Source: Candidatus Uhrbacteria bacterium
GTDB taxonomy: Bacteria > Patescibacteriota > Patescibacteriia > UBA9934 > GWF2-40-263
Reading direction: 5' to 3'
NCBI GenBank assembly: GCA_026395055.1
Contig: JAPLZK010000002.1
Location: forward strand, 128,154 to 192,153
Length of the DNA: 64,000 nt
The position numbers and the translations under genes were made by a program. Positions 31,335 through 41,596 of this stretch are shown here, in pieces. The notes beneath the pieces were generated by a model. It searched no databases. It saw only the letters and a program-made list of their open reading frames with translations, and was not told where the DNA came from. How positions within the stretch are numbered: position 1 is the first letter of the stretch; each line of letters starts with the position of its first letter.

Positions 31335-33323
31335 TTACAGGCTGAGCTCTTCGATCATGGCGAGGACTTCCTCGATCCAGAGCGTGAGCGTGACGTCCGC
31401 AGGCGCGCGCCAATCGCCGCGAGGGCTGAGCGAGACACTTGCAACCTTGGGGCAGTCCGGCAGGTTTTGCCGTTTGAATTGCGCGTTTGAGAACCGAGTC
31501 AGAAACGCGAGGAGCCATTTCAGAATCGTTACGCGATCATATTCGCCCGCGAACGTGAGTTCCGCGAGCCAGGCAATTTTCCGCGGTGCGTAACCGTTTC
31601 GGATCATGTGCCAGAGGAAAAAGTCATGCAGGATGTACGGACCAATGAGATCTTCGGTCAATTGTTCGATCTCACCAGCCTTCTTTGGCTTTGTGAGTTC
31701 GGGCGAGATGGGCGTAGCGAGCACATCAAGGATTGCCTTGCGGATTTCCTTGAAGAGCTCAATGTCCGCCGCATAGCGCACGAGATATTTCACGAGGGTC
31801 TTCGGGATGTCGCCATTGGGGTTGTACATCGACTGTTGATCGCCGTTGTACGTGCACCAACCTTGCGCAATCTCAGAGAGGTCCCCGGTGCCAATCACGA
31901 ACCCGAGGTCCATGAGAATGTGCGTGCGTTCACGCGCTTGGGCGTTTTCGCACTTGAGGCACGTCCAGCACGGCTCGTGTCCAATGCTTCGCAGATGCGT
32001 CGTCACATTTTTCACAATCGAGATGTCTTTCCAGGTGACACCCGTTTGCCGGATGAGCTTCAGCGCATTTTTCTTGGTGCGCTTCGATGTGCCAGCTCCT
32101 GGCATGGTCACAGCAAGGATGCCCTTGCGATCCCAACCGAGTTCATCGAACGCACGAAGAACGAAGAGAAACGCGAGGAGCGAATCGAGGCCGCCCGAGA
32201 TGCCAATGACGACATCGCGGCGACCGGTTCCTTTTTCGAAACTCATGAGCCGACGCTTGAGCGCGGTCACGACGTGAGCATAAATGTCTTCGCACCGTTC
32301 GGTGCGCTTTTTTTCATCCGACGGAACAAACGGGAGTTTGTTCAGGTTGATGCGAGGCGCGGCAGCGATTTTGTCATCGACCGACTCGATCGTACATTCG
32401 ATATGTCGAAACGTTTTCGGATCGACCATGGAGGTCTGACCGAAACTTCCGGACATGAATCGTTCGCGTTCGAGCTTCTCCACGTCCACATCCGTGATGA
32501 GGAGTTGAGGTTCGAACTGAAACGGCTTGGAGCGTATGCGCATGTGACCGTTTTCTGCGATCATCGCGTCGCCGTCAAAGATGACGTCGCCGGAAGATTC
32601 CCACGGACCAGACGAAACATACAGGTACGCGCTCATGCAGTGTGCGGCCTGTTGCGTCACGAGGTCGTAGCGATACGAGCCCTTTCCGATCTCGCTGTTT
32701 GAAGCAGAGAGATTCGTAAGAATCGTCGCGCCCGCGTTCGCTTGGTGCGAACTCGGGGGGATCGGCATCCAGAGATCTTCGCAGATCTCGGTGCCGAGGC
32801 AAAAGATGCGGCGTTTGTTCGAACCGGTTCCGACGAACACATCGATCACATGATCGGTGCCGAAGGGGACACGTTGTCCGCAGAGTTCCACTTCCGATAC
32901 GGTCGCTTCGTACCCAGGCCGAAACCATCGCCCTTCGTAGAAGTGTTTGTAGTTCGGAATGAACGTCTTTGGCGTGATGCAGAGGATTACGCCTTTGTGC
33001 ATCGTGACCGCAACGTTGAACAACTTCTGGTTCACGAGCAGCGGCATGCCGACTTGAATGATCATGTCTGCATCGGCCGTTGTTTTGAGTAGCAAGCTCA
33101 ATCCGTCGATCGCTTTCTCATGGAGAAACGGTTGCAAGAACAGATCGCCGCAGGTGTAGCCCGTGAGCGACAGTTCTGGGAATGTGAGGAGCTGAACATG
33201 TTGATACGCTGCTTCCCCGACAAGCTTCGCCATTTCAAAAACGTTCATGAGCGGATTGGTGACATGCACCATCGGCACAGCAACCGCTGTACGAACAAGT
33301 CCAAACGCATTCTTGGGTTTCAT
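31335..33323 (-). CDS. nadE: Glutamine-dependent NAD+ synthetase (CN-hydrolase plus NAD synthetase domains)
   Basis: N-terminal nitrilase/CN-hydrolase domain, C-terminal PP-loop SGGLDS, 662 aa. RBS aaggaga. Confidence 0.85.
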   Translation of the reverse strand: MKPKNAFGLVRTAVAVPMVHVTNPLMNVFEMAKLVGEAAYQHVQLLTFPELSLTGYTCGDLFLQPFLHEKAIDGLSLLLKTTADADMIIQVGMPLLVNQKLFNVAVTMHKGVILCITPKTFIPNYKHFYEGRWFRPGYEATVSEVELCGQRVPFGTDHVIDVFVGTGSNKRRIFCLGTEICEDLWMPIPPSSHQANAGATILTNLSASNSEIGKGSYRYDLVTQQAAHCMSAYLYVSSGPWESSGDVIFDGDAMIAENGHMRIRSKPFQFEPQLLITDVDVEKLERERFMSGSFGQTSMVDPKTFRHIECTIESVDDKIAAAPRINLNKLPFVPSDEKKRTERCEDIYAHVVTALKRRLMSFEKGTGRRDVVIGISGGLDSLLAFLFVLRAFDELGWDRKGILAVTMPGAGTSKRTKKNALKLIRQTGVTWKDISIVKNVTTHLRSIGHEPCWTCLKCENAQARERTHILMDLGFVIGTGDLSEIAQGWCTYNGDQQSMYNPNGDIPKTLVKYLVRYAADIELFKEIRKAILDVLATPISPELTKPKKAGEIEQLTEDLIGPYILHDFFLWHMIRNGYAPRKIAWLAELTFAGEYDRVTILKWLLAFLTRFSNAQFKRQNLPDCPKVASVSLSPRGDWRAPADVTLTLWIEEVLAMIEELSL

Positions 33324-33373
33324 AGTGTCTCCTTGTCTTCTCGGTTGTAGGGAGCAGAATCAATTCGTCTGAT

Positions 33374-33428
33374 CTTCACGCGCTGACACATGTCGGCGGG
33401 TGGAGAAAAGGGCGATGTAAACATCGCC
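33374..33428. promoter_or_regulatory. Conserved intergenic module, copy A
   Basis: Inverted repeat cttcacgcgctgaca-ca-tgtcggcgggtggag, then aaaag, then hairpin ggcgatgtaaacatcgcc. On the minus strand this reads as hairpin, CUUUUCUCC, then the inverted repeat, upstream of the nadE RBS. Confidence 0.6.
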
Positions 33429-33479
33429 AGATGTTGTAGGGACAGGTCGTGACCTGTCCGATCGAATACGATCATGGGT

Positions 33480-34427
33480 CTAGTACAGAATATCGCCGTT
33501 GTGATCCCAGTTGCGGTAACCGTGACCATCGGGCTTGTGCACGATCGACTTCATGACCGTGCCGCCGTTTGCTTCTTCACAACGCGCGAACGTAACGTTC
33601 ACGCCGTGCGACTTCTCATCGAAAATGCCACCGACCAGGAACACAGGTGTGCCCCAGGGGAGTGGATTGCCGATGCGGACACCGTGCAGTTTTTGCTCGC
33701 CAAATTCGGTGAACTCAGCTTGCAGAGGCGCGATGTCGATCCAGTTCTTTGCGTTCCAGTCCACGACTTCTTGCGTTGCGCGGCCAACCGACTCCGGCCG
33801 CCATACTTCACGAATCACCACCATCTGCACACCGAGATTGCCCAGCACTTTGATGTACTCGAGAATCCCCGCAGCATCTTTCACGCCCGACTTGTTGATG
33901 ACAAGTGATGCACGCACAAGGAGTCCGAGTTCACGACATCGTTTGATAAGATCGGCGGGCGATTTCTTGATCAACATGAGTCCACGATTCTGTTCGAAGT
34001 CGTGGCTTGCAATCGAGAGTGTGATCATGGTGAGACCATAGCTGACCAAAGTGTCGAGCAAATGCTCTTTTGGCATGCCTGCCTGAAAAAGAAATCCGTT
34101 CGTATGCATATCTACAAGCGGAAGATATTTCGCACATTCCGTCACAACGTTCACGAGGTATTCTGGCGATTCCTGACTCGGATCCGCGCGACCCGTGAGA
34201 ATTGCATGCGTCGCGCCTGTGCGCTCAGCGAACCGGAGTCCGACGCGCAGTCGGTGTAGTTCGCATGTCTTCACGTCTTTTTCGTTTTCCATTTCCGTCC
34301 CGGGTGTTGTGCGACTGATGCAGAATTTGCATCCAGCCGTGCAGCGTTCTCGTGTCGAAAGCTGAACGGAAATGCTTTGCGCGCGCATCTGTCCGGAGCC
34401 GTGGGCGATTTGCCGATGTTCTGTCAT
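33480..34427 (-). CDS. Radical SAM protein (activase-like family)
   Basis: CxxxCxxC motif (CTAGCKFC), LTGRADP (LTGGEP-like) and TNG motifs. The start is the second Met (RBS gaaggag), because the longer six-frame ORF reads through the upstream intergenic element. Confidence 0.7.
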   Translation of the reverse strand: MTEHRQIAHGSGQMRAQSISVQLSTRERCTAGCKFCISRTTPGTEMENEKDVKTCELHRLRVGLRFAERTGATHAILTGRADPSQESPEYLVNVVTECAKYLPLVDMHTNGFLFQAGMPKEHLLDTLVSYGLTMITLSIASHDFEQNRGLMLIKKSPADLIKRCRELGLLVRASLVINKSGVKDAAGILEYIKVLGNLGVQMVVIREVWRPESVGRATQEVVDWNAKNWIDIAPLQAEFTEFGEQKLHGVRIGNPLPWGTPVFLVGGIFDEKSHGVNVTFARCEEANGGTVMKSIVHKPDGHGYRNWDHNGDILY

Positions 34428-34445
34428 TTGAATGTACTCCTTCAC

Positions 34446-34501
34446 CTTCACACGTCGACGAAATTGTCGGCGGGTGGAGAAAAGAGGTGAGAGACTCACC
34501 T
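34446..34501. promoter_or_regulatory. Conserved intergenic module, copy B
   Basis: cttcacacgtcgac-gaaatt-gtcggcgggtggag, then aaaag, then hairpin aggtgagagactcacct. Confidence 0.6.
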
Positions 34502-34523
34502 GAGAGAGTTGAACGCTGGAAGA

Positions 34524-35159
34524 TTACATGCCCCCTGTATTCGGCCAGCGTGTTTTGGGCGCGGCTTTCAGACGGCGGATTTCTTCTTTCAGTCGCATGT
34601 TCTGAATGTACAAACGAAATGCGTAGACGCGCAGATCGACGCAGACGTAGGTGTCTGCAAGAAATTCTTCTTCGGACACCCAATGGCGGATGATCTCTTC
34701 GCCCTCACCTGCAAGGCCGAATGTATCGTCGTCATGACCGGAAAGTTGATCGATCGTGATCTGTGCGTAGCAAAGGTGCGTGCGTTCCGGAATGATTCCG
34801 ACCGAGAGCACCATACTCACACCATTGTTCAAAACGATGATGGATTCTTCTGGGATGGTTGCGCCGAGTTCTTCCGAACCTTCCGCGACACACAGTTGCT
34901 TTGGCGAAACGTTTCGATCGAACCGACCTGCGAATGGGGTGATGAGTTCACCGGTTGGGTTCTCATCTGTCTGCACCGCAATGTGTGGCGAGCGAATGAG
35001 AAGCACACGCTTGTTCACGACGTCGTGGAGAATTCCGGCGACCGAGTCTGTGCAACGTACGATGTACCAGGGATTGCCCGTGACGGGGTGTTCCCATTCT
35101 TCGAGTCGCAAGAATTTGTTTTCGTAAAGGACGCGAACGAATGTTGCGGGTTTGGACAT
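34524..35159 (-). CDS. NUDIX hydrolase, ADP-ribose pyrophosphatase-like
   Basis: NUDIX box AGRFDRNVSPKQLCVAEGSEELG aligns with the NudF-type GX5EX7REUXEEXGU motif. RBS aaggag. Confidence 0.6.
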   Translation of the reverse strand: MSKPATFVRVLYENKFLRLEEWEHPVTGNPWYIVRCTDSVAGILHDVVNKRVLLIRSPHIAVQTDENPTGELITPFAGRFDRNVSPKQLCVAEGSEELGATIPEESIIVLNNGVSMVLSVGIIPERTHLCYAQITIDQLSGHDDDTFGLAGEGEEIIRHWVSEEEFLADTYVCVDLRVYAFRLYIQNMRLKEEIRRLKAAPKTRWPNTGGM

Positions 35160-35177
35160 GTGAGGAACTCCTTCTGA

Positions 35178-35233
35178 TCTTCACGCGTCGATAAGATATC
35201 GGCGAGTGGAGAAAAGGCTCGAGCGTTTCGAGC
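35178..35233. promoter_or_regulatory. Conserved intergenic module, copy C
   Basis: cttcacgcgtcgata-ag-tatcggcgagtggag, then aaaag, then hairpin gctcgagcgtttcgagc. Confidence 0.6.
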
Positions 35234-35243
35234 AGGTGTTGTC

Positions 35244-36500
35244 CTAGACCTGGCACGTGACATTCACGTGTGTGTACCGATCATAGTTTGTGAGGCGCTT
35301 CACGCGCGTCACAGAGGATTTGCGTCCGGTCAGTTTCTTTCGGTTGTCCGAGAGTTTGACGGTCGCGCGTCCACAGATGTGCGTGAGCTTGCAGACAATC
35401 GAGAGGGCTTTCAGTCCACGATTGTTTTTATAGGATTGGAATCCCATGTTATTGCCGAGGTTCGTGCCCCAACCAAATGCGAGCTTGATGCGACCACGGA
35501 AGTGCGCGTTCAGTTTCACAATGAGTCGTGCATCGAGACCGTCCGAGAAGACAATCAATTTCGTTTTCGGATCGATGCCGATCGATTCGTAGTACGCGAT
35601 AACTTTCTCCCCGTACGCAAACGGGTCGCCGGAATCGTGACGTGTTCCGATCCACTTCTTTGCAAACGCTTCGAAGTGTTCAAGAAAGTAGTCAGAGCCG
35701 TACGTGTCCGAGAGTGCAATGGAAAGGATTGTGCCATAGAGGGCAAACCATTGTTCAAGGAGAAGTTCGTGCGAGTACATGTACCCGGCCGCGTCATCCT
35801 CTTTGTGGTAGATGCCTTGATACCCCATGTCCATTTCGTGGGCGATGGTGCCGATCGCATCGATACCGAGTTCGATCGCAATCCAAATGTTTGACGTGCC
35901 GGTAAACTGCGCGCCTATTTTTGCGGTGCAGGTTGCGGCAACTTCACGCTGCCATTCGTAACTCCAACGACGACGCGTGCTGAAATCGGAGACGATCGCG
36001 TCCGACTCCATCACAATCTCGATGTTCTCGATCAACTTGTCACGGCCAGAGGCGAGGACTTCTTCTTCGGTGAGACCAAGCTCTGTGCACTTCGCGCGGA
36101 AGTACAGGCGGTTGACCACGTTCATGATGAACGTTTCCCACATCGTGATTGCCGTCCACTTGCCCCGCGCATGAATGGCGAGCTTGCCCTTCACAACGCC
36201 GACATGAATATCGGAGAGCTTGTAGGATTTCAGCCACGTCAGAAATGCAGGCTGCAATTGCCGACCAAGTGTCGGATGATTCCGAAGGCGTTCGATCATC
36301 TCGTCCGTCATCGTCATCTGCTTGATGTGGTCGAGTTCTGCTTGGACTTGCTCGATCGTCATGAAGTCGAGCAGATTCACATCTGTCCGATTCTTGAACG
36401 TGAATCGTCCCCTCCGTTTGCGCTGATGGAGCCAGATGAACTGGAGCATCATCAGTTTGTACTTGTCTGTATCGAGTAAGTTTTTGACGATGTCGAACAT
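35244..36500 (-). CDS. pncB: Nicotinate phosphoribosyltransferase
   Basis: N-terminal LLDTDKYKLMMLQ motif characteristic of NAPRTase, with size (about 420 aa) consistent. Start at MFDIVKN with RBS aaggaga. Confidence 0.75.
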   Translation of the reverse strand: MFDIVKNLLDTDKYKLMMLQFIWLHQRKRRGRFTFKNRTDVNLLDFMTIEQVQAELDHIKQMTMTDEMIERLRNHPTLGRQLQPAFLTWLKSYKLSDIHVGVVKGKLAIHARGKWTAITMWETFIMNVVNRLYFRAKCTELGLTEEEVLASGRDKLIENIEIVMESDAIVSDFSTRRRWSYEWQREVAATCTAKIGAQFTGTSNIWIAIELGIDAIGTIAHEMDMGYQGIYHKEDDAAGYMYSHELLLEQWFALYGTILSIALSDTYGSDYFLEHFEAFAKKWIGTRHDSGDPFAYGEKVIAYYESIGIDPKTKLIVFSDGLDARLIVKLNAHFRGRIKLAFGWGTNLGNNMGFQSYKNNRGLKALSIVCKLTHICGRATVKLSDNRKKLTGRKSSVTRVKRLTNYDRYTHVNVTCQV

Positions 36501-36656
36501 CGTGTTCTCCTTGTGCAAAAAGGACAGACCCACGAACGTCTTTCGTTCGTGAGAGAAATGTGCCCTCGAGCGCACATGCGCTCGAGAAAACGTTTCTTGG
36601 TCTTTCGAGAAAAATATCCTCGGGGCTGAATGTTCAGCCCCGGGAAGAAGAAGGAA

Positions 36657-38045
36657 TTACAGTTCGCTGATGCGACGCTGCAAATCTGTTTCTGGAAAGA
36701 ACGCGAGTTCTGCGGTTGCGGTTGTGCTTCTGCGAATGGACATGGAGTTCAGTTCGCCGAGTGGAACGCCGTCGCAGAAACCACGCATCGGTCGCTTGTC
36801 TTTGCTCATCGCTTCGAATCGAATGTGTGTATCGATCGGAAGCGGTTCGTTTTTCCAGTGGTGGGAACATACGCAGCTTCCAACGAGTTGGAGCATCTGC
36901 GTGCCAGGAATGAGACGCGAGCCACCCATGCGGTATGCGTATCCTGTTGATCCAGCCGCAGTTGAAACGAGCATGACGTCTGACATGATGGGATCGAATT
37001 TCACTTCGCCATTCATGAGGACACGTGTCCAAATGGTTTGTCCGCTCAGGCGATCAACCCATGCGTCGTTGAACGCGAGCATGGATGCGTGTTCGCCTGT
37101 GACGGATTCTGCTTCCACGTAGAGCAGGGACTCTGTGTACGTTTTGAGTTCACGACACGCGCGGAGTTTTTCCACGATCGTCGCTTCGTCAAAGTCGTTG
37201 AGCAGAAATCCTTTTGTTCCTCGGTTGAGGCCGAAGAACGGAACGTGATCGCGCCAGAGGCGACGAATGGTGTGAAGCATGAAGCCGTCGCCGCCGATGA
37301 CGACAACGCAGTTGTGTTGTCCTGGATCTGTTTGAAACGCGGATGCGAGTTTTGCCGCAATGCTCACCGCGTTTGCGTTTTGATCATTCGCCACAATGAG
37401 TGGCTGCATGGGTTCCGCAAATTTTGCTGGTCCACGCAGAACGCGTCCTGTGAACAACTGGTGTCGTTCCATGAACGCCGCAACAGCTGGCGACACAAGA
37501 GTTTCGATTGATTGGTGCTTGAAGATCCGTTCGCGAATTTCCGAACTGGATCCACGAAGGGTTGGTTCGATGATCGTGTGGTGCGGCGGAAGATCTTCCG
37601 GCACACACTTCACTCCATAGCGCATGTGCACCATGAAATGCAACTCGTTCCAAACTTCCTGTCCACGAAACCACGTTCGATGAATTTCCGATTGACCACG
37701 CGCGCCGCCGGCAATGATGTCGGCGCCGATGACGTGGCAAATTTCGTGATTCGGATAGAGGGCACGATAACGCTGATCGATATCGTACGAACGGGTGAAC
37801 ACCGAATGCTCAAGATCCGTAAGATCAATTTCGACACGCGGAATGCGGCCGAACGCGAGATCACACAGGGCTGCGCGAAACGCGAGCGAAAGATCATTGG
37901 TCGTTTCTTTGTCCGGTCGTGGTCCACACGGAATGACGATGAGACGATCATCAGGACCGAGCCTGTTCGCAAGTTTGCGAATGATCGCTTCGTGATGTAA
38001 TCCCGGAGGGCAGAAACTTCCACCGTACAGAAAAATCGTTGGCAT
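36657..38045 (-). CDS. Bifunctional fusion: NaMN/NMN adenylyltransferase (NadD-like) plus NAD kinase (NadK)
   Basis: N-terminal GGSFCPPGLHH (cytidylyltransferase (H/T)xGH-type motif). C-terminal NAD kinase motifs GGDGFML and DVMLVSTAAGSTGYAYRMGGSRL. Start at MPTIFLYGG with RBS gaaggag. Confidence 0.7.
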   Translation of the reverse strand: MPTIFLYGGSFCPPGLHHEAIIRKLANRLGPDDRLIVIPCGPRPDKETTNDLSLAFRAALCDLAFGRIPRVEIDLTDLEHSVFTRSYDIDQRYRALYPNHEICHVIGADIIAGGARGQSEIHRTWFRGQEVWNELHFMVHMRYGVKCVPEDLPPHHTIIEPTLRGSSSEIRERIFKHQSIETLVSPAVAAFMERHQLFTGRVLRGPAKFAEPMQPLIVANDQNANAVSIAAKLASAFQTDPGQHNCVVVIGGDGFMLHTIRRLWRDHVPFFGLNRGTKGFLLNDFDEATIVEKLRACRELKTYTESLLYVEAESVTGEHASMLAFNDAWVDRLSGQTIWTRVLMNGEVKFDPIMSDVMLVSTAAGSTGYAYRMGGSRLIPGTQMLQLVGSCVCSHHWKNEPLPIDTHIRFEAMSKDKRPMRGFCDGVPLGELNSMSIRRSTTATAELAFFPETDLQRRISEL

Positions 38046-38060
38046 GGTGTACTCCTTCAG

Positions 38061-38120
38061 CTTCAGCGTCCCAGGAGTGGGGCGCTTAAGAAAAGGGCAG
38101 AGTTCGAGAACTCCGCGAGA
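38061..38120. promoter_or_regulatory. Degenerate copy D of the intergenic module
   Basis: cttcagcgtcccaggagtggggcgcttaagaaaaggg followed by hairpin gcagagttcgagaactccgc. On the minus strand this is a hairpin plus CCCUUUUCUU. Confidence 0.45.
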
Positions 38121-38133
38121 GAATGAACGAATC

Positions 38134-38904
38134 CTAGTTGCGTGCGATGAAGCCGAACGATTGCAGGGCTTGTCGCAGTTCAATCGGATCATCTTTGTTG
38201 ATGACGAACAGGTTGCCGGCGCTTGGCGTGAGCGTTCCTGCTTCGAGCTCGGCGGCAATCTCGTCCGCGGCACGACCGGATCCCTTGATCACGTACGTGG
38301 GCCAGCCGTTCTTGACCGAGCGCATGACTTCGTCGCGCGTGATTGGTCCGCCGTTCCATGCGATTACGCCGACCTGGTTGAATCCAGCATGTGCTTTCAG
38401 GTTGGACATGAGTTCGAAGGCAGCATTCAGATCGCCGTCCCAGTCGAGCTTGCCTTCTGCACCATCTTGCACAAGCAGAATGGCGTTCATGGCCGGATTC
38501 GGCGCAGTGCCGTAATCGTCGAGCGTCAGATGTGATTCGCCCGTGAGACGCAAGACGTCTGTACGCGGGGCGGAGCCGAGTGCAATGCATTCGGGATTTG
38601 ATGCCGCGATGAAACCGGGAATGTCTGTGACCATGGGGTCAAGAACAATGTCTTTGTCGAACTGACGCGTGCCACCCGACCAGATCATTCCCTTGAAGCC
38701 TTCGAGGGCCATCAGGAAAAAGCCGATCATGGCACGCTTGTCATCACTATTCATTCCTTTGCATCCGCCGCTGATGCGCAGACACACTTTCTCTCCCGCA
38801 CGCGTTGCCATGAGGGCGAACGTTGCGGGGATTTGATTGCGCTTGTCTTGCACGAGCAGGTAGGTCTTGCCGCCAGGCGCGGTCACGGTTCTTGCTGTTG
38901 TCAT
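38134..38904 (-). CDS. LOG/SLOG-like Rossmann-fold protein, paralog 1
   Basis: LOG-like glycine motifs SGGCKGM and WSGGTRQ (GGGxxG-like) and KGSGRAADE (PGGxGTxEE-like). Paralogous to the neighbouring 257-aa ORF. Confidence 0.5.
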   Translation of the reverse strand: MTTARTVTAPGGKTYLLVQDKRNQIPATFALMATRAGEKVCLRISGGCKGMNSDDKRAMIGFFLMALEGFKGMIWSGGTRQFDKDIVLDPMVTDIPGFIAASNPECIALGSAPRTDVLRLTGESHLTLDDYGTAPNPAMNAILLVQDGAEGKLDWDGDLNAAFELMSNLKAHAGFNQVGVIAWNGGPITRDEVMRSVKNGWPTYVIKGSGRAADEIAAELEAGTLTPSAGNLFVINKDDPIELRQALQSFGFIARN

Positions 38905-38931
38905 CACTGCCTTTACGAACTTCCTAATTTT

Positions 38932-39705
38932 CTACGCCTGTGATTTCACGAGACGCAGTTTCTCCGGGGGAAGGATCCCGAAAGAAATGAGATGTTGCCT
39001 GATGTCGTCAGAATCTTTTTCTGCGACACGGACGTTTGGGTGTGACTCGAGAAACGCCTTGTTGCTCGCATACACATCCGCGTTGCGACCGCTGCCCCTG
39101 ATGAGCAGAACTGGCCAACCGCGTTTTGCGGTTGCGAGGATCTCGCGTTCCGTCACACCACCGCCGTTGTAGACGATGAGCAGTGATTTGAAATCGGCGA
39201 ACTCACGCAGGTCTTTTATGATCTGCAGACATTCTTCGAACTCCGCGTCCCAAATGGCCGGCTGATCCGGCGACACTTGAACCAGCAGACACATATCTTG
39301 GTTTGGATGAATGATCGTACGGTAGGTATCGACGTCACTCTCCGAAACCACGAGTCCGTGTTCCGTGATCTTGATGTCAGAAGTTCTTGGAACGACTCCA
39401 AGGGAAACCATGTTCGGACAGACCTCGCGTATGTGCGACGGAATCTCAGTGATCCCGGGCACAATGTTCGACGCATCTTGTTTCTCGATCATGCGCGTGC
39501 CACCAAAGAGCATGGCGCCCGCAAATCCAGAGAACGCTTCTGCGAAGAGTGAAAGAAAATCTCGCGCATCTTCCGCAGACATGTATCCGCACCCGCCCGT
39601 GAGCCGTACAACAACTCGATTGCGAGCAGTCGTGAGTTTGAGGGCGATCTTTACCGACTGGTCTCCTTCGTTCTTCACGAATAAGGAGGGAATGATGGTA
39701 GACAT
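38932..39705 (-). CDS. LOG/SLOG-like Rossmann-fold protein, paralog 2
   Basis: Same architecture and length as paralog 1 (RLTGGCGYM, FGGTRM, RGSGRNAD). RBS aaggaga. Confidence 0.5.
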   Translation of the reverse strand: MSTIIPSLFVKNEGDQSVKIALKLTTARNRVVVRLTGGCGYMSAEDARDFLSLFAEAFSGFAGAMLFGGTRMIEKQDASNIVPGITEIPSHIREVCPNMVSLGVVPRTSDIKITEHGLVVSESDVDTYRTIIHPNQDMCLLVQVSPDQPAIWDAEFEECLQIIKDLREFADFKSLLIVYNGGGVTEREILATAKRGWPVLLIRGSGRNADVYASNKAFLESHPNVRVAEKDSDDIRQHLISFGILPPEKLRLVKSQA

Positions 39706-39726
39706 CGTGTCTCCTTGTGGTGTGAG

Positions 39727-39800
39727 CCTTCGATTTCAGAACCTCATTGTTGGGGTGCTGAAGAAAAGGGCTCTACATTTCGTTTTGCTGATTTGTATGT
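39727..39800. promoter_or_regulatory. Degenerate copy E of the intergenic module, also the pncA terminator region
   Basis: cttcgatttcagaacctcattgttggggtgctgaagaaaaggg followed by hairpin gctctacat...atggagagc. Confidence 0.45.
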
Positions 39801-39843
39801 GCAAGGTGAAATGGAGAGCGGGGGAGAGAAAGAGCGAATTGCC

Positions 39844-40602
39844 TTAGGTGTGGATCTGATCCGAGTTGATGCACTTCACGCCGCGAGCGATGAGGCGCGC
39901 TTCCATGAAGGCAATCGAGCCGGGGTAGTCGCCATCCGGAGGCAAACCAACGGAGCGCGTGCAGTCGCGGACGATGTAGGACTCGAAGCCTTCGAGTGCC
40001 GCGTCTTCGGCTGTGAAGCCAACGCAGAAGTCGAACGCGAGACCGACGATGAACACGCGCTTGATGCCGCGTTCCTTCAGGATGCGACCAAGACCAGTCG
40101 GCATCCAAAGCGTGTCGCGAAACGCGCTGTAGCTGTCGACGCGCGGATCCGTTCCCTTCGGGAAGTGCAGAATGAACGCGTCGTCGAGATCGCGCAGGCC
40201 GTCGAAGAGACGAATCTCGTTTGTGGTCATATCGGCATGTTCGTCCCAGAGGAGCGTTTCATGCCGATTGAGGCGCATGAGGTAGGCGATCAAATCTTCG
40301 CGGGTGAAGAGTGCATGCTTCGCAATCTTGACCTTGTTTTGCAGAACTTCCGTGATGGTGAGCGGACCGCGGGCCCGTTTCACGTAGGAGGTTCGGTAGT
40401 TGATGTGACCCCTCGGGTGCGCATCGAAGACGTTGAAACGTTGGCGGCGCTTGAACTTCAGAACGAGTTCCCGGAGGACCCCGATGATATCAAGCGCGCC
40501 AGGCACCGGCAGTCCACCATCTGGACCAAATGCATTTGTCGCATCAACGACGATGACCGCATCGCCTTTGCCGATCTTGATCAAACCTTCGAAATTCAGC
40601 AT
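39844..40602 (-). CDS. pncA: Nicotinamidase/pyrazinamidase (isochorismatase family)
   Basis: Isochorismatase-fold motifs VVDATNAF, FDAHP.GH and the catalytic Cys context GLAFDFCV. Confidence 0.7.
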   Translation of the reverse strand: MLNFEGLIKIGKGDAVIVVDATNAFGPDGGLPVPGALDIIGVLRELVLKFKRRQRFNVFDAHPRGHINYRTSYVKRARGPLTITEVLQNKVKIAKHALFTREDLIAYLMRLNRHETLLWDEHADMTTNEIRLFDGLRDLDDAFILHFPKGTDPRVDSYSAFRDTLWMPTGLGRILKERGIKRVFIVGLAFDFCVGFTAEDAALEGFESYIVRDCTRSVGLPPDGDYPGSIAFMEARLIARGVKCINSDQIHT

Positions 40603-40817: not shown

Positions 40818-40844
40818 AAGTAAGTGTAGACTATACACTTACTT
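40818..40844. promoter_or_regulatory. Perfect 11-bp-arm inverted repeat, candidate operator
   Basis: AAGTAAGTGTA-gacta-TACACTTACTT between the nrtR 3' end and the pncA upstream region. Shares the GTGTA...TACAC core with the palindrome at 41582-41596. Confidence 0.45.
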
Positions 40845-40854
40845 ATGTCAAGAC

Positions 40855-40908: not shown

Positions 40909-41574
40909 TTACATAATTTCCACGTATTCCAGCTTTCGGTGCTTGAACTTATAGAGCTCAGCGGGGCGGTTGGCTTCGCCGCCACGTTTCTTTCCAACAG
41001 GAACGATGAGATCCAGAGCCAAAATGCGCTTGCGGAAGTTGCGTTTATCTACGGTTGTATCAAGAATAATCTCGTAAACACGCTGTAAATCTGTGAGAGT
41101 GAATTCGTCAGGGAGCAAGCTCCAGGCGATGTTTGTGTATTGTAATCGGCTTTTGAGGCGCGTAATGGCTTCCTTGGCAATGATTTTGTGATCATAAGCC
41201 AATTCGGGAAGTTTTTTTACGGGCCACCATTTCACGTCCGCATACTTGTCTGACGTTTTGAGCTGAACGGTGTCAGAGATGAGGGCGAATGACGCAACGG
41301 AAATGACACGTTCTAATTGATCGCGATCAATTGCATCAAATGTTTTCAGTTGTTCAAGGTAGATATTTGAAACTCCTGTCTGTTCTTTTAAAATGCGAAT
41401 GGCGGTCTGTTCTGTGGTTTCTGCGTCCTCAACACGTCCGCCAGGGAAGGCCCAAAGTCCTGTGTAAGGTTTCTTTTTCATTTGGATGAGAAGTGCACAA
41501 AGTTGGTCATCTTTTACGGTAAAGATGACGGTATCAACCGCAACGACGATAGATTGTTTTGTGGATGGGGACAT
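40909..41574 (-). CDS. nrtR: NrtR-family transcriptional regulator (NUDIX-like domain plus C-terminal winged-helix)
   Basis: N-terminal NUDIX box (GGRVEDAETTEQTAIRILKEQTGV) and a C-terminal about 90-aa wHTH-like region. This architecture is diagnostic of NrtR regulators of NAD metabolism. Confidence 0.65.
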   Translation of the reverse strand: MSPSTKQSIVVAVDTVIFTVKDDQLCALLIQMKKKPYTGLWAFPGGRVEDAETTEQTAIRILKEQTGVSNIYLEQLKTFDAIDRDQLERVISVASFALISDTVQLKTSDKYADVKWWPVKKLPELAYDHKIIAKEAITRLKSRLQYTNIAWSLLPDEFTLTDLQRVYEIILDTTVDKRNFRKRILALDLIVPVGKKRGGEANRPAELYKFKHRKLEYVEIM

Positions 41575-41581
41575 AAGTGTT

Positions 41582-41596
41582 TGTGTAAATTACACA
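41582..41596. promoter_or_regulatory. 7-1-7 palindrome immediately upstream of the nrtR start, candidate autoregulatory operator
   Basis: TGTGTAA-a-TTACACA located 8-22 nt upstream of the nrtR ATG. Confidence 0.45.

Follow-up and report, generated by a model that had tools for sequence, protein, structure and literature searches.

Background

The binding of ligands derived from nicotinamide adenine dinucleotide (NAD) by LSDAT domains, a clade of the SLOG superfamily, is established for the channel TRPM2, and the SLOG domain of ThsA, a protein of the Thoeris system, is a sensor of 3'cADPR. In the MHR1/2 site of human TRPM2, ADP-ribose (ADPR) is contacted by stacking on Y295, by R302 at the adenosine ribose, and by R358, which touches both phosphates (PMC6759353). 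In LOG and PpnN, the 5'-phosphate is bound by the motif PGGxGTxxE, whose Glu (E122 in CgLOG, E264 in PpnN) activates water for the attack (PMC4979012; bioRxiv 10.1101/2025.04.13.648610); the active sites of LOG are formed through dimerisation (PMC4979012), and the SLOG domains of ThsA dimerise (bioRxiv 10.64898/2026.03.01.708072). The prokaryotic LSDAT family, PF18171, comes from the computational work of Burroughs et al. 2015 (cited in PMC13143021), and both the fold and the family are already catalogued in Pfam. Here we describe two adjacent genes of this family, A and B, in a 64,000-nucleotide (nt) stretch, called the window below, of a genome of Candidatus Uhrbacteria, a lineage of the Patescibacteria or candidate phyla radiation (CPR). 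A and B are stand-alone prokaryotic homologues of the TRPM MHR1/2 domains in the LSDAT clade of the SLOG superfamily, they occur as a strict pair that is recurrently found beside genes for NAD salvage, and together they probably form a two-subunit enzyme or sensor that acts on an NAD-derived nucleotide. Both open reading frames (ORFs) are on the minus strand:

38932..39705, minus strand: SLOG paralog A (LSDAT_prok), upstream member of the pair, 257 amino acids (aa), ATG start with AGGAG before it
38134..38907, minus strand: SLOG paralog B (LSDAT_prok), downstream member of the pair, 257 aa, GTG start, or ATG at 38904

A and B are paralogs related to TRPM MHR1/2

The two genes are separated by 24 nt in the window. 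In a BLASTP comparison, A and B shared 33% identity over 246 residues with an E value of 2e-41, indicating that the likeness is not due to chance and that they are true paralogs, in agreement with an initial annotation of the window that described two adjacent 257-aa paralogs here. Protein A is 100% identical to a hypothetical protein from a Candidatus Uhrbacteria MAG (metagenome-assembled genome). That annotation also ascribed to both proteins the motifs GGxxGM, (W/F)(S/G)GGTR and (K/R)GSGRxAD(E/V). All three are present in B (GGCKGM, WSGGTR and KGSGRAADE) and the last is present in A (RGSGRNADV), but the first motif of A is GGCGYM, with Y for G, and its second, LFGGTR, is one residue off register. 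Both proteins stand alone without a fused effector, and their relatives are about 245-300 aa long.

The Pfam family PF18171 (LSDAT_prok, "SLOG in TRPM, prokaryote") matched B at 38.1 bits and A at 33.1 bits against a gathering threshold of 25.4, and most of the retrieved homologues carry a precomputed PF18171 label. PF18139 (LSDAT_euk) was matched marginally by B, at 26.6 bits over a threshold of 25.7, and fell under that threshold for A (14.2 bits). No match to the LOG family PF03641 was found for either protein at E <= 0.1 in the Pfam scan, and no NCBIfam or PADLOC model matched A or B. Search profiles for the B type (39 homologues) and the A type (41 homologues) were compared with the sequences of the PDB, where the B profile matched MHR1/2 of TRPM8 and TRPM2 at E about 4e-4 and the A profile gave a weaker match to the TRPM2 chanzyme (E 0.19); the LOG-like protein TM1055 ranked after TRPM in these searches, with weak E values of 0.2-0.46. 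The AlphaFold models had high mean confidence (pLDDT 95.4 for B and 91.2 for A) and matched TRPM MHR1/2 best, followed by the SLOG domains of LOG, MoCo-carrier, DprA and ThsA proteins. In a Foldseek search of the PDB with the model of B, the top 50 matches were all TRPM proteins (TRPM4, 8, 5, 2, 7 and 3). The SLOG fold predicted in the initial annotation is thus borne out by the family model, the profile searches and the structure search, which lead to TRPM MHR1/2 and not to a non-SLOG fold.

Strict pairing and distribution of the family

A total of 53 loci were clustered at 90% identity of B, and pairing was scored wherever a non-redundant locus extended 850 nt or more beyond B on the upstream side, which was the case for 31. 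In every one of these an A-type gene immediately preceded B on the same strand, and the A-B gap was 29-181 nt in all but one, where it was 1161 nt. That locus (L046, 364-1525) is the only one in which the two genes are apart, and a 315-aa ORF lies between them. Across a set of 322 relatives, consisting of 106 B-type, 153 A-type and 63 more divergent proteins, the A and B types were separable by profile score, which, together with the strict tandem, indicates that the duplication is old, that it predates the spread of the pair and that both copies have been retained. The only fusions seen in the family are P0308 (801 aa) and P0327 (705 aa), each with a C-terminal A-type SLOG domain; the N-terminal 460-540 residues of these two proteins had no Pfam match and gave no Rosetta-stone clue to function.

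The family is rare, with 480 representatives at 50% identity and E <= 1e-3 among 1.84 billion proteins. Homologues, all annotated as hypothetical proteins, were found in Uhrbacteria, Falkowbacteria, Absconditabacterales, Saccharibacteria and other Patescibacteria, and also in one MAG labelled Eisenbacteria and one MAG of Aenigmatarchaeota (DPANN). The contig labelled Aenigmatarchaeota carries the same type of NAD operon along with archaeal proteasome, SBDS and TrmB genes. The presence of this operon type in the Aenigmatarchaeota MAG suggests that the cluster has moved horizontally between lineages of CPR and DPANN.

Neighbouring genes were counted in the 17 non-redundant loci in which the pair is flanked by 3 kb or more on each side. 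Nine of these have one or more NAD-salvage genes (PncA, PncB, NadD/NadK, NadE, the Nudix-like or the radical SAM gene) or NrtR near the pair, so the NAD link that had been proposed for the window holds beyond it, and in the other eight the pair is a two-gene unit among unrelated housekeeping genes with no NAD gene nearby. These eight loci, and the confinement of the family to reduced-genome CPR and DPANN lineages, are what might be expected if A and B were a nucleosidase for nucleotide 5'-monophosphates in general, with AMP, GMP or modified purines as substrates, that salvaged base and ribose-5-phosphate in nucleotide-auxotrophic organisms and was only loosely linked to NAD. We consider this quite unlikely, since NAD genes or NrtR at nine of 17 loci is far above chance given the few NAD genes in a genome of about 1000 genes, and since the proteins belong to the LSDAT clade and not to LOG, lack a PF03641 match at the cutoff given above, and do not have the Arg/Glu pair with which LOG binds ribose.

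Many SLOG families have been reported in conflict systems (PMC9503650), the setting usually proposed for prokaryotic SLOG sensors, which raises the question of whether the pair could be a component of an anti-phage or conflict system centred on NAD. The evidence makes this very improbable. No PADLOC model matched, a scan of viral contigs found no relatives, the loci inspected gene by gene contained no TIR, Sir2, patatin or transmembrane partners, and the neighbours are housekeeping or salvage genes. In the defence operon of ThsA, the SLOG domain is joined to a Sir2 NADase effector, whereas the window proteins have neither an effector nor a defence context, and their size of about 255-270 aa, the missing effector fusion and the missing PADLOC match fit an enzyme better than a sensor of a conflict system. 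PADLOC also returned nothing for the radical SAM and Nudix-like proteins of the operon described below, and a viral origin or defence role was rejected on the empty viral-contig scan and the absence of PADLOC matches for all four proteins.

Pocket residues compared with TRPM and LOG/PpnN

The elements that are near-invariant in the 322 relatives are GG(C), GGTR, P(R/K)T, (N/H)P, Q, W-D-x-(D/E), NGG-x2-T-x2-E and GSGR-x2-D, and in B the invariant residues are R44, G47, G48, C49, T80, R81, T94, N137, Q147, W156, D159, N185, G186, G187, T190, E193 and R212. The block GGxxT...GSGRxAD is common to the window proteins and TRPM2 MHR1/2. In the profile alignment, the Arg of GSGR (R212 in B, R207 in A), which is invariant in both paralogs, aligns with R358 of human TRPM2, so that the diphosphate-contacting residue is kept. 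The Y295/R302 region of human TRPM2 falls at W156-D157-x-D159 of B, where the alignment is weak; an aromatic residue is nearby and there is no Arg, and W-D-x-(D/E) of the window proteins would take the place of the R302 region of TRPM2. They also differ from TRPM in being stand-alone 257-aa proteins without a channel or MHR3/4 fusion and in being two paralogs.

The second resemblance is to LOG and PpnN. The motif NGGxxTxxE is similar to PGGxGTxxE of these enzymes, and in an hhalign match that is not significant (E 0.31) N180-E188 of A are placed on P256-E264 of PpnN, a register that includes the phosphate-binding Thr and the water-activating Glu; the B profile was aligned onto the wrong glycine motif of PpnN. 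The motif Glu (E193 in B, E188 in A) is kept in 321 of 322 relatives, unlike in TRPM2, where the position is Thr339, and TRPM8, where it is Ile. Other features separate the window proteins from LOG and PpnN. They have no LOG Pfam match, the Arg and Glu that bind the 2'- and 3'-hydroxyls of ribose are replaced, the additional N-terminal lobe and the GSGR loop are peculiar to LSDAT, and they would be heteromeric where LOG is a homodimer. Taken from the alignments, the pocket would be a hybrid that combines a diphosphate clamp resembling that of TRPM2, a Thr/Glu resembling that of LOG, and a Trp and acidic pair specific to the family.

Such a pocket can also be viewed in terms of the main rival to an enzyme, a non-catalytic heterodimeric sensor of ADPR, NAD+ or a related dinucleotide that would tune the salvage enzymes or report NAD status. 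This would be in keeping with the closest structural relatives, which are ligand-sensing TRPM domains, with the invariance of the TRPM2 phosphate-binding Arg in both paralogs, with the missing LOG catalytic Arg, and with the recurrent presence of NrtR, which is ADPR-responsive in characterised systems. Nevertheless, the water-activating Glu that was lost in the TRPM channels has been kept in nearly all relatives, many polar residues are very highly conserved in both paralogs in the manner of an active site, and no effector or output domain is fused or consistently adjacent, the pairs standing alone among unrelated neighbours. On balance we regard a sensor as doubtful, though it is the most serious competitor to an enzyme.

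The NAD operon of the window

On the minus strand of the window, the genes and sites are in the order nrtR, a terminator-like hairpin, a promoter-like site, the pncA-like gene, A, B, nadD-nadK, pncB, the Nudix-like gene, the radical SAM gene and nadE. The pncA-like gene is upstream of the pair and nadD-nadK directly downstream, in agreement with the position between nadD-nadK and pncA given in the initial annotation. The genes other than A and B are as follows, with NaMN for nicotinate mononucleotide:

40909..41574, minus strand: NrtR, with a Nudix domain and a winged-helix NrtR DNA-binding domain (Pfam PF21906 88 bits, PF00293 65 bits)
39844..40602, minus strand: pncA-like nicotinamidase of the isochorismatase family, first gene of the operon (Pfam PF00857)
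36657..38045, minus strand: nadD-nadK fusion, NaMN adenylyltransferase and NAD kinase (Pfam, NCBIfam)
35244..36500, minus strand: pncB, nicotinate phosphoribosyltransferase (TIGR01514 310 bits, cutoff 269.55)
34524..35159, minus strand: divergent Nudix-like gene of the YffH/AdpP ADPR pyrophosphatase type (TIGR00052 24.8 bits, weak)
33480..34427, minus strand: radical SAM protein of no named family (CxxxCxxC; PF04055 28.3 bits, just under cutoff)
31335..33323, minus strand: nadE, glutamine-dependent NAD synthetase, last gene of the operon (Pfam PF00795 and PF02540)

The pncA-like protein scored 75 bits with the NCBIfam nicotinamidase/pyrazinamidase model, which is under the model cutoff, and the start of nadD-nadK was reassigned to the ATG at 38045, which has a GAAGGAG Shine-Dalgarno sequence. 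A Namat/NARP-type reading of the phosphoribosyltransferase was ruled out, as the protein passes the PncB equivalog TIGR01514. Compared with the PDB sequences, the Nudix-like protein matched NudK and ADPR pyrophosphatase at E about 0.02. The presence of Nudix genes (NrtR and the YffH-like gene) in the operon is a further likeness to TRPM2, which joins MHR1/2 with a homologue of Nudix ADPR pyrophosphatases. The G+C content of the operon (31335-40602) is 0.53-0.55, compared with 0.43-0.48 over most of the surrounding window. A contig titled "uncultured Gammaproteobacteria bacterium" (CAYOCD010000001.1, loci L001/L008) encodes a B protein 87% identical to that of the window and is syntenic with it for murA, an M50 peptidase, two small ORFs, nrtR and the NAD operon; given this synteny and identity, the Gammaproteobacteria label looks wrong. 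In these loci nadD is a separate 211-aa gene between pncA and A.

Regulatory sites

NrtR in characterised systems is released from DNA by ADPR. In the window, nrtR is 1.2 kb upstream of the SLOG pair, and the following sites were found:

40823..40851, minus strand: promoter-like site, TTGACA, 17 nt, TACACT (promoter scan, 10/12 matches)
40824-40838, minus strand: palindrome GTGTAGACTATACAC (GTGTA-N5-TACAC) inside the promoter-like site, putative NrtR operator
41583..41595, minus strand: second palindrome, GTGTA-N3-TACAC, just upstream of nrtR, putative autoregulation site

Matches to GTGTA-N(1-7)-TACAC numbered two in the 64-kb window, compared to 0.05 expected. The GTGTA-N-TACAC motif adjoins NrtR genes in eight other loci, and at one locus (L033) two NrtR-type palindromes precede a nadK-pncB-A-B operon. 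From their sequence and position, both palindromes of the window are read as putative NrtR operators. With an nrtR gene upstream, palindromes flanking the operon promoter and recurrence in other loci, the earlier description of the cluster as linked to NrtR is upheld.

A search for riboswitches in the 5' untranslated region and the intergenic regions (Rfam at E <= 1) gave two implausible weak matches. Apart from the 24 nt between A and B, all intergenic gaps of the NAD operon contain one composite element, which is also present in three other loci (L001, L009 and L015) and has no Rfam match:

33330-33430, 34430-34505, 35165-35235, ~36560-36650, 38046-38120 and 39718-39790, minus strand: copies of the composite intergenic element

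Its parts are, in order, a variable GC-rich hairpin, CCUUUUCU, a conserved imperfect hairpin and a purine run GAAGG(AG) that serves the following gene as its Shine-Dalgarno sequence in the majority of copies. A 21-nt core of the element has three copies (0.00 expected) and a shorter core, CCTTTTCTYMA, has four (0.29 expected), all of them within the intergenic elements. There are two subtypes, and RNAalifold applied to each predicted pairing of CCUUU with GAAGG, with five pairs showing compensatory changes in subtype 1; an alignment of mixed subtypes, which are one column out of register, yielded no structure. The element may be one that sequesters the Shine-Dalgarno sequence or directs processing and is repeated between cistrons, and the element-free A-B gap fits co-translation of A and B.

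Proposed function

Given the fold, the strict pairing, the neighbourhood and the conserved LOG- and TRPM2-like pocket residues, we tentatively propose that A and B are a heteromeric LSDAT SLOG protein of NAD recycling, most likely a LOG-type N-glycosidase/phosphoribohydrolase acting on a pyridine nucleotide, although we would put this at somewhat less than even likelihood. A heterodimer, its catalysis and the identity of its substrate are what we infer here. A heteromer is suggested by the strict tandem, the short hairpin-free A-B gap, the dimer-built active sites of LOG and the dimers of ThsA SLOG domains, and an enzyme is favoured because the proteins stand alone, their neighbours are metabolic and the water-activating Glu is retained.

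The simplest reaction would be cleavage of nicotinamide mononucleotide (NMN) to nicotinamide and ribose-5-phosphate, with cleavage of NAD+ to nicotinamide and ADPR, or of an ADPR derivative, as alternatives. NMN would be the most economical substrate, as the reaction would be the canonical one of LOG and PpnN, from nucleoside monophosphate to base and ribose-5-phosphate, on a different base; NMN is the product of NAD-dependent DNA ligase. A Trp and a carboxylate where LOG has its Arg would be well matched to a leaving group that is a positively charged pyridinium. The nicotinamide set free would enter the co-transcribed route PncA, PncB, NadD, NadE and NadK, the ribose-5-phosphate could be reused for phosphoribosyl pyrophosphate (PRPP), and the operon would be switched on via NrtR.

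Several observations weigh against this proposal. The closest relatives of known structure, the MHR1/2 domains of TRPM channels, sense ligands and are not catalytic, and the motif Glu could instead bind a ribose diol in a sensor. We know of no experimentally characterised prokaryotic member of PF18171. In a motif register set by eye, with no significant alignment, PpnN R241 corresponds to D159 in B and E155 in A, and E223 to T134 and T130; as only one of the three catalytic residues of LOG and PpnN is conserved, a mechanism identical to that of LOG is excluded. The hhalign comparisons of the family profiles with Escherichia coli PpnN were not significant (E 0.08-0.3) and serve only as a check of register. 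At the eight well-flanked loci mentioned above the pair is without a nearby NAD gene, and no NrtR-type palindrome was found within 350 nt upstream of A in 29 non-redundant loci when up to one mismatch was allowed, in a scan with a background rate of 2.6%. Finally, an enzyme that degrades NAD or NMN in a salvage operon requires that NadD be unable to use NMN and that PncC be absent.

The "NMN nucleosidase" step of bacterial NAD recycling has long been known. A more specific form of the phosphoribohydrolase proposal, which we consider unlikely as it stands, is that the A/B heterodimer is a single-step enzyme that splits NMN (alternatively NaMN or NAD+) into the free base and ribose-5-phosphate (or ADPR), which would give a gene to this step in organisms without PncC and would represent a catalytic, ancestor-like state from which the non-catalytic ADPR-sensing MHR1/2 domains of TRPM descended. 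If so, the partnership of an MHR1/2-type domain with a Nudix ADPR hydrolase would already be present in prokaryotic NAD operons.

CPR NAD operons without the pair

The radical SAM gene is present in the window and in other loci with the SLOG pair, and to our knowledge no radical SAM enzyme has a role in salvage by PncA, PncB, NadD and NadE. Six loci seeded with this gene (L055-L060) represent five distinct lineages, L058 and L060 being closely related, and three of these lineages are named CPR phyla in the source records (Komeilibacteria, Buchananbacteria and Falkowbacteria). The radical SAM homologue is between pncB and nadE in all six, with other genes interposed in some, and overlaps an upstream His_Phos_1 gene in three. 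No SLOG gene was detectable in L055-L060. As context that supports an enzyme, these operons carry other enzymes for the glycosidic bonds or phosphates of NAD and ADPR products, the first three of the following being in the same slot:

L056, L058 and L060: ADP-ribosylglycohydrolase
L058: DrHyd-type Nuc_deoxyri_tr2 protein
L055, L056 and L058: His_Phos_1 phosphatase
L056-L058: PRPP synthetase

Two routes of cytokinin activation are known. By analogy, and with few lineages to compare, a one-step SLOG phosphoribohydrolase in some operons and a two-step phosphatase and nucleosidase in others would parallel these routes. Two of the pair-free operons (L058 557-1489 and L060 3940-4881) also contain, beside nadD or pncA, a conserved protein of about 310 aa that is 57% identical between the loci, has no Pfam match on record and includes a Nudix-box-like sequence, GGHLDIKGYHxETAAEALIHEAxDEAG.

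Implications

Outside the 2015 paper that defined LSDAT, the searchable literature does not describe the obligate A/B pair, its restriction to CPR and DPANN, or its membership of an NrtR-linked NAD-salvage operon, and the obligate pair and its metabolic setting appear to be new. A and B are small, soluble and confidently modelled, which makes their function directly tractable. If the pair is an enzyme, it would fill an unassigned step of NAD recycling, the return of NMN or NAD breakdown products to nicotinamide, in the very large, salvage-dependent CPR and DPANN radiations, and it would extend the catalysis of the SLOG fold by a new variant in which an acidic residue and Trp replace the LOG Arg. 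Whether enzyme or sensor, the pair in its NrtR-type NAD/ADPR operon would offer a concrete prokaryotic setting in which the ADPR-binding MHR1/2 domains of TRPM, and their association with a Nudix ADPR hydrolase, could have originated.

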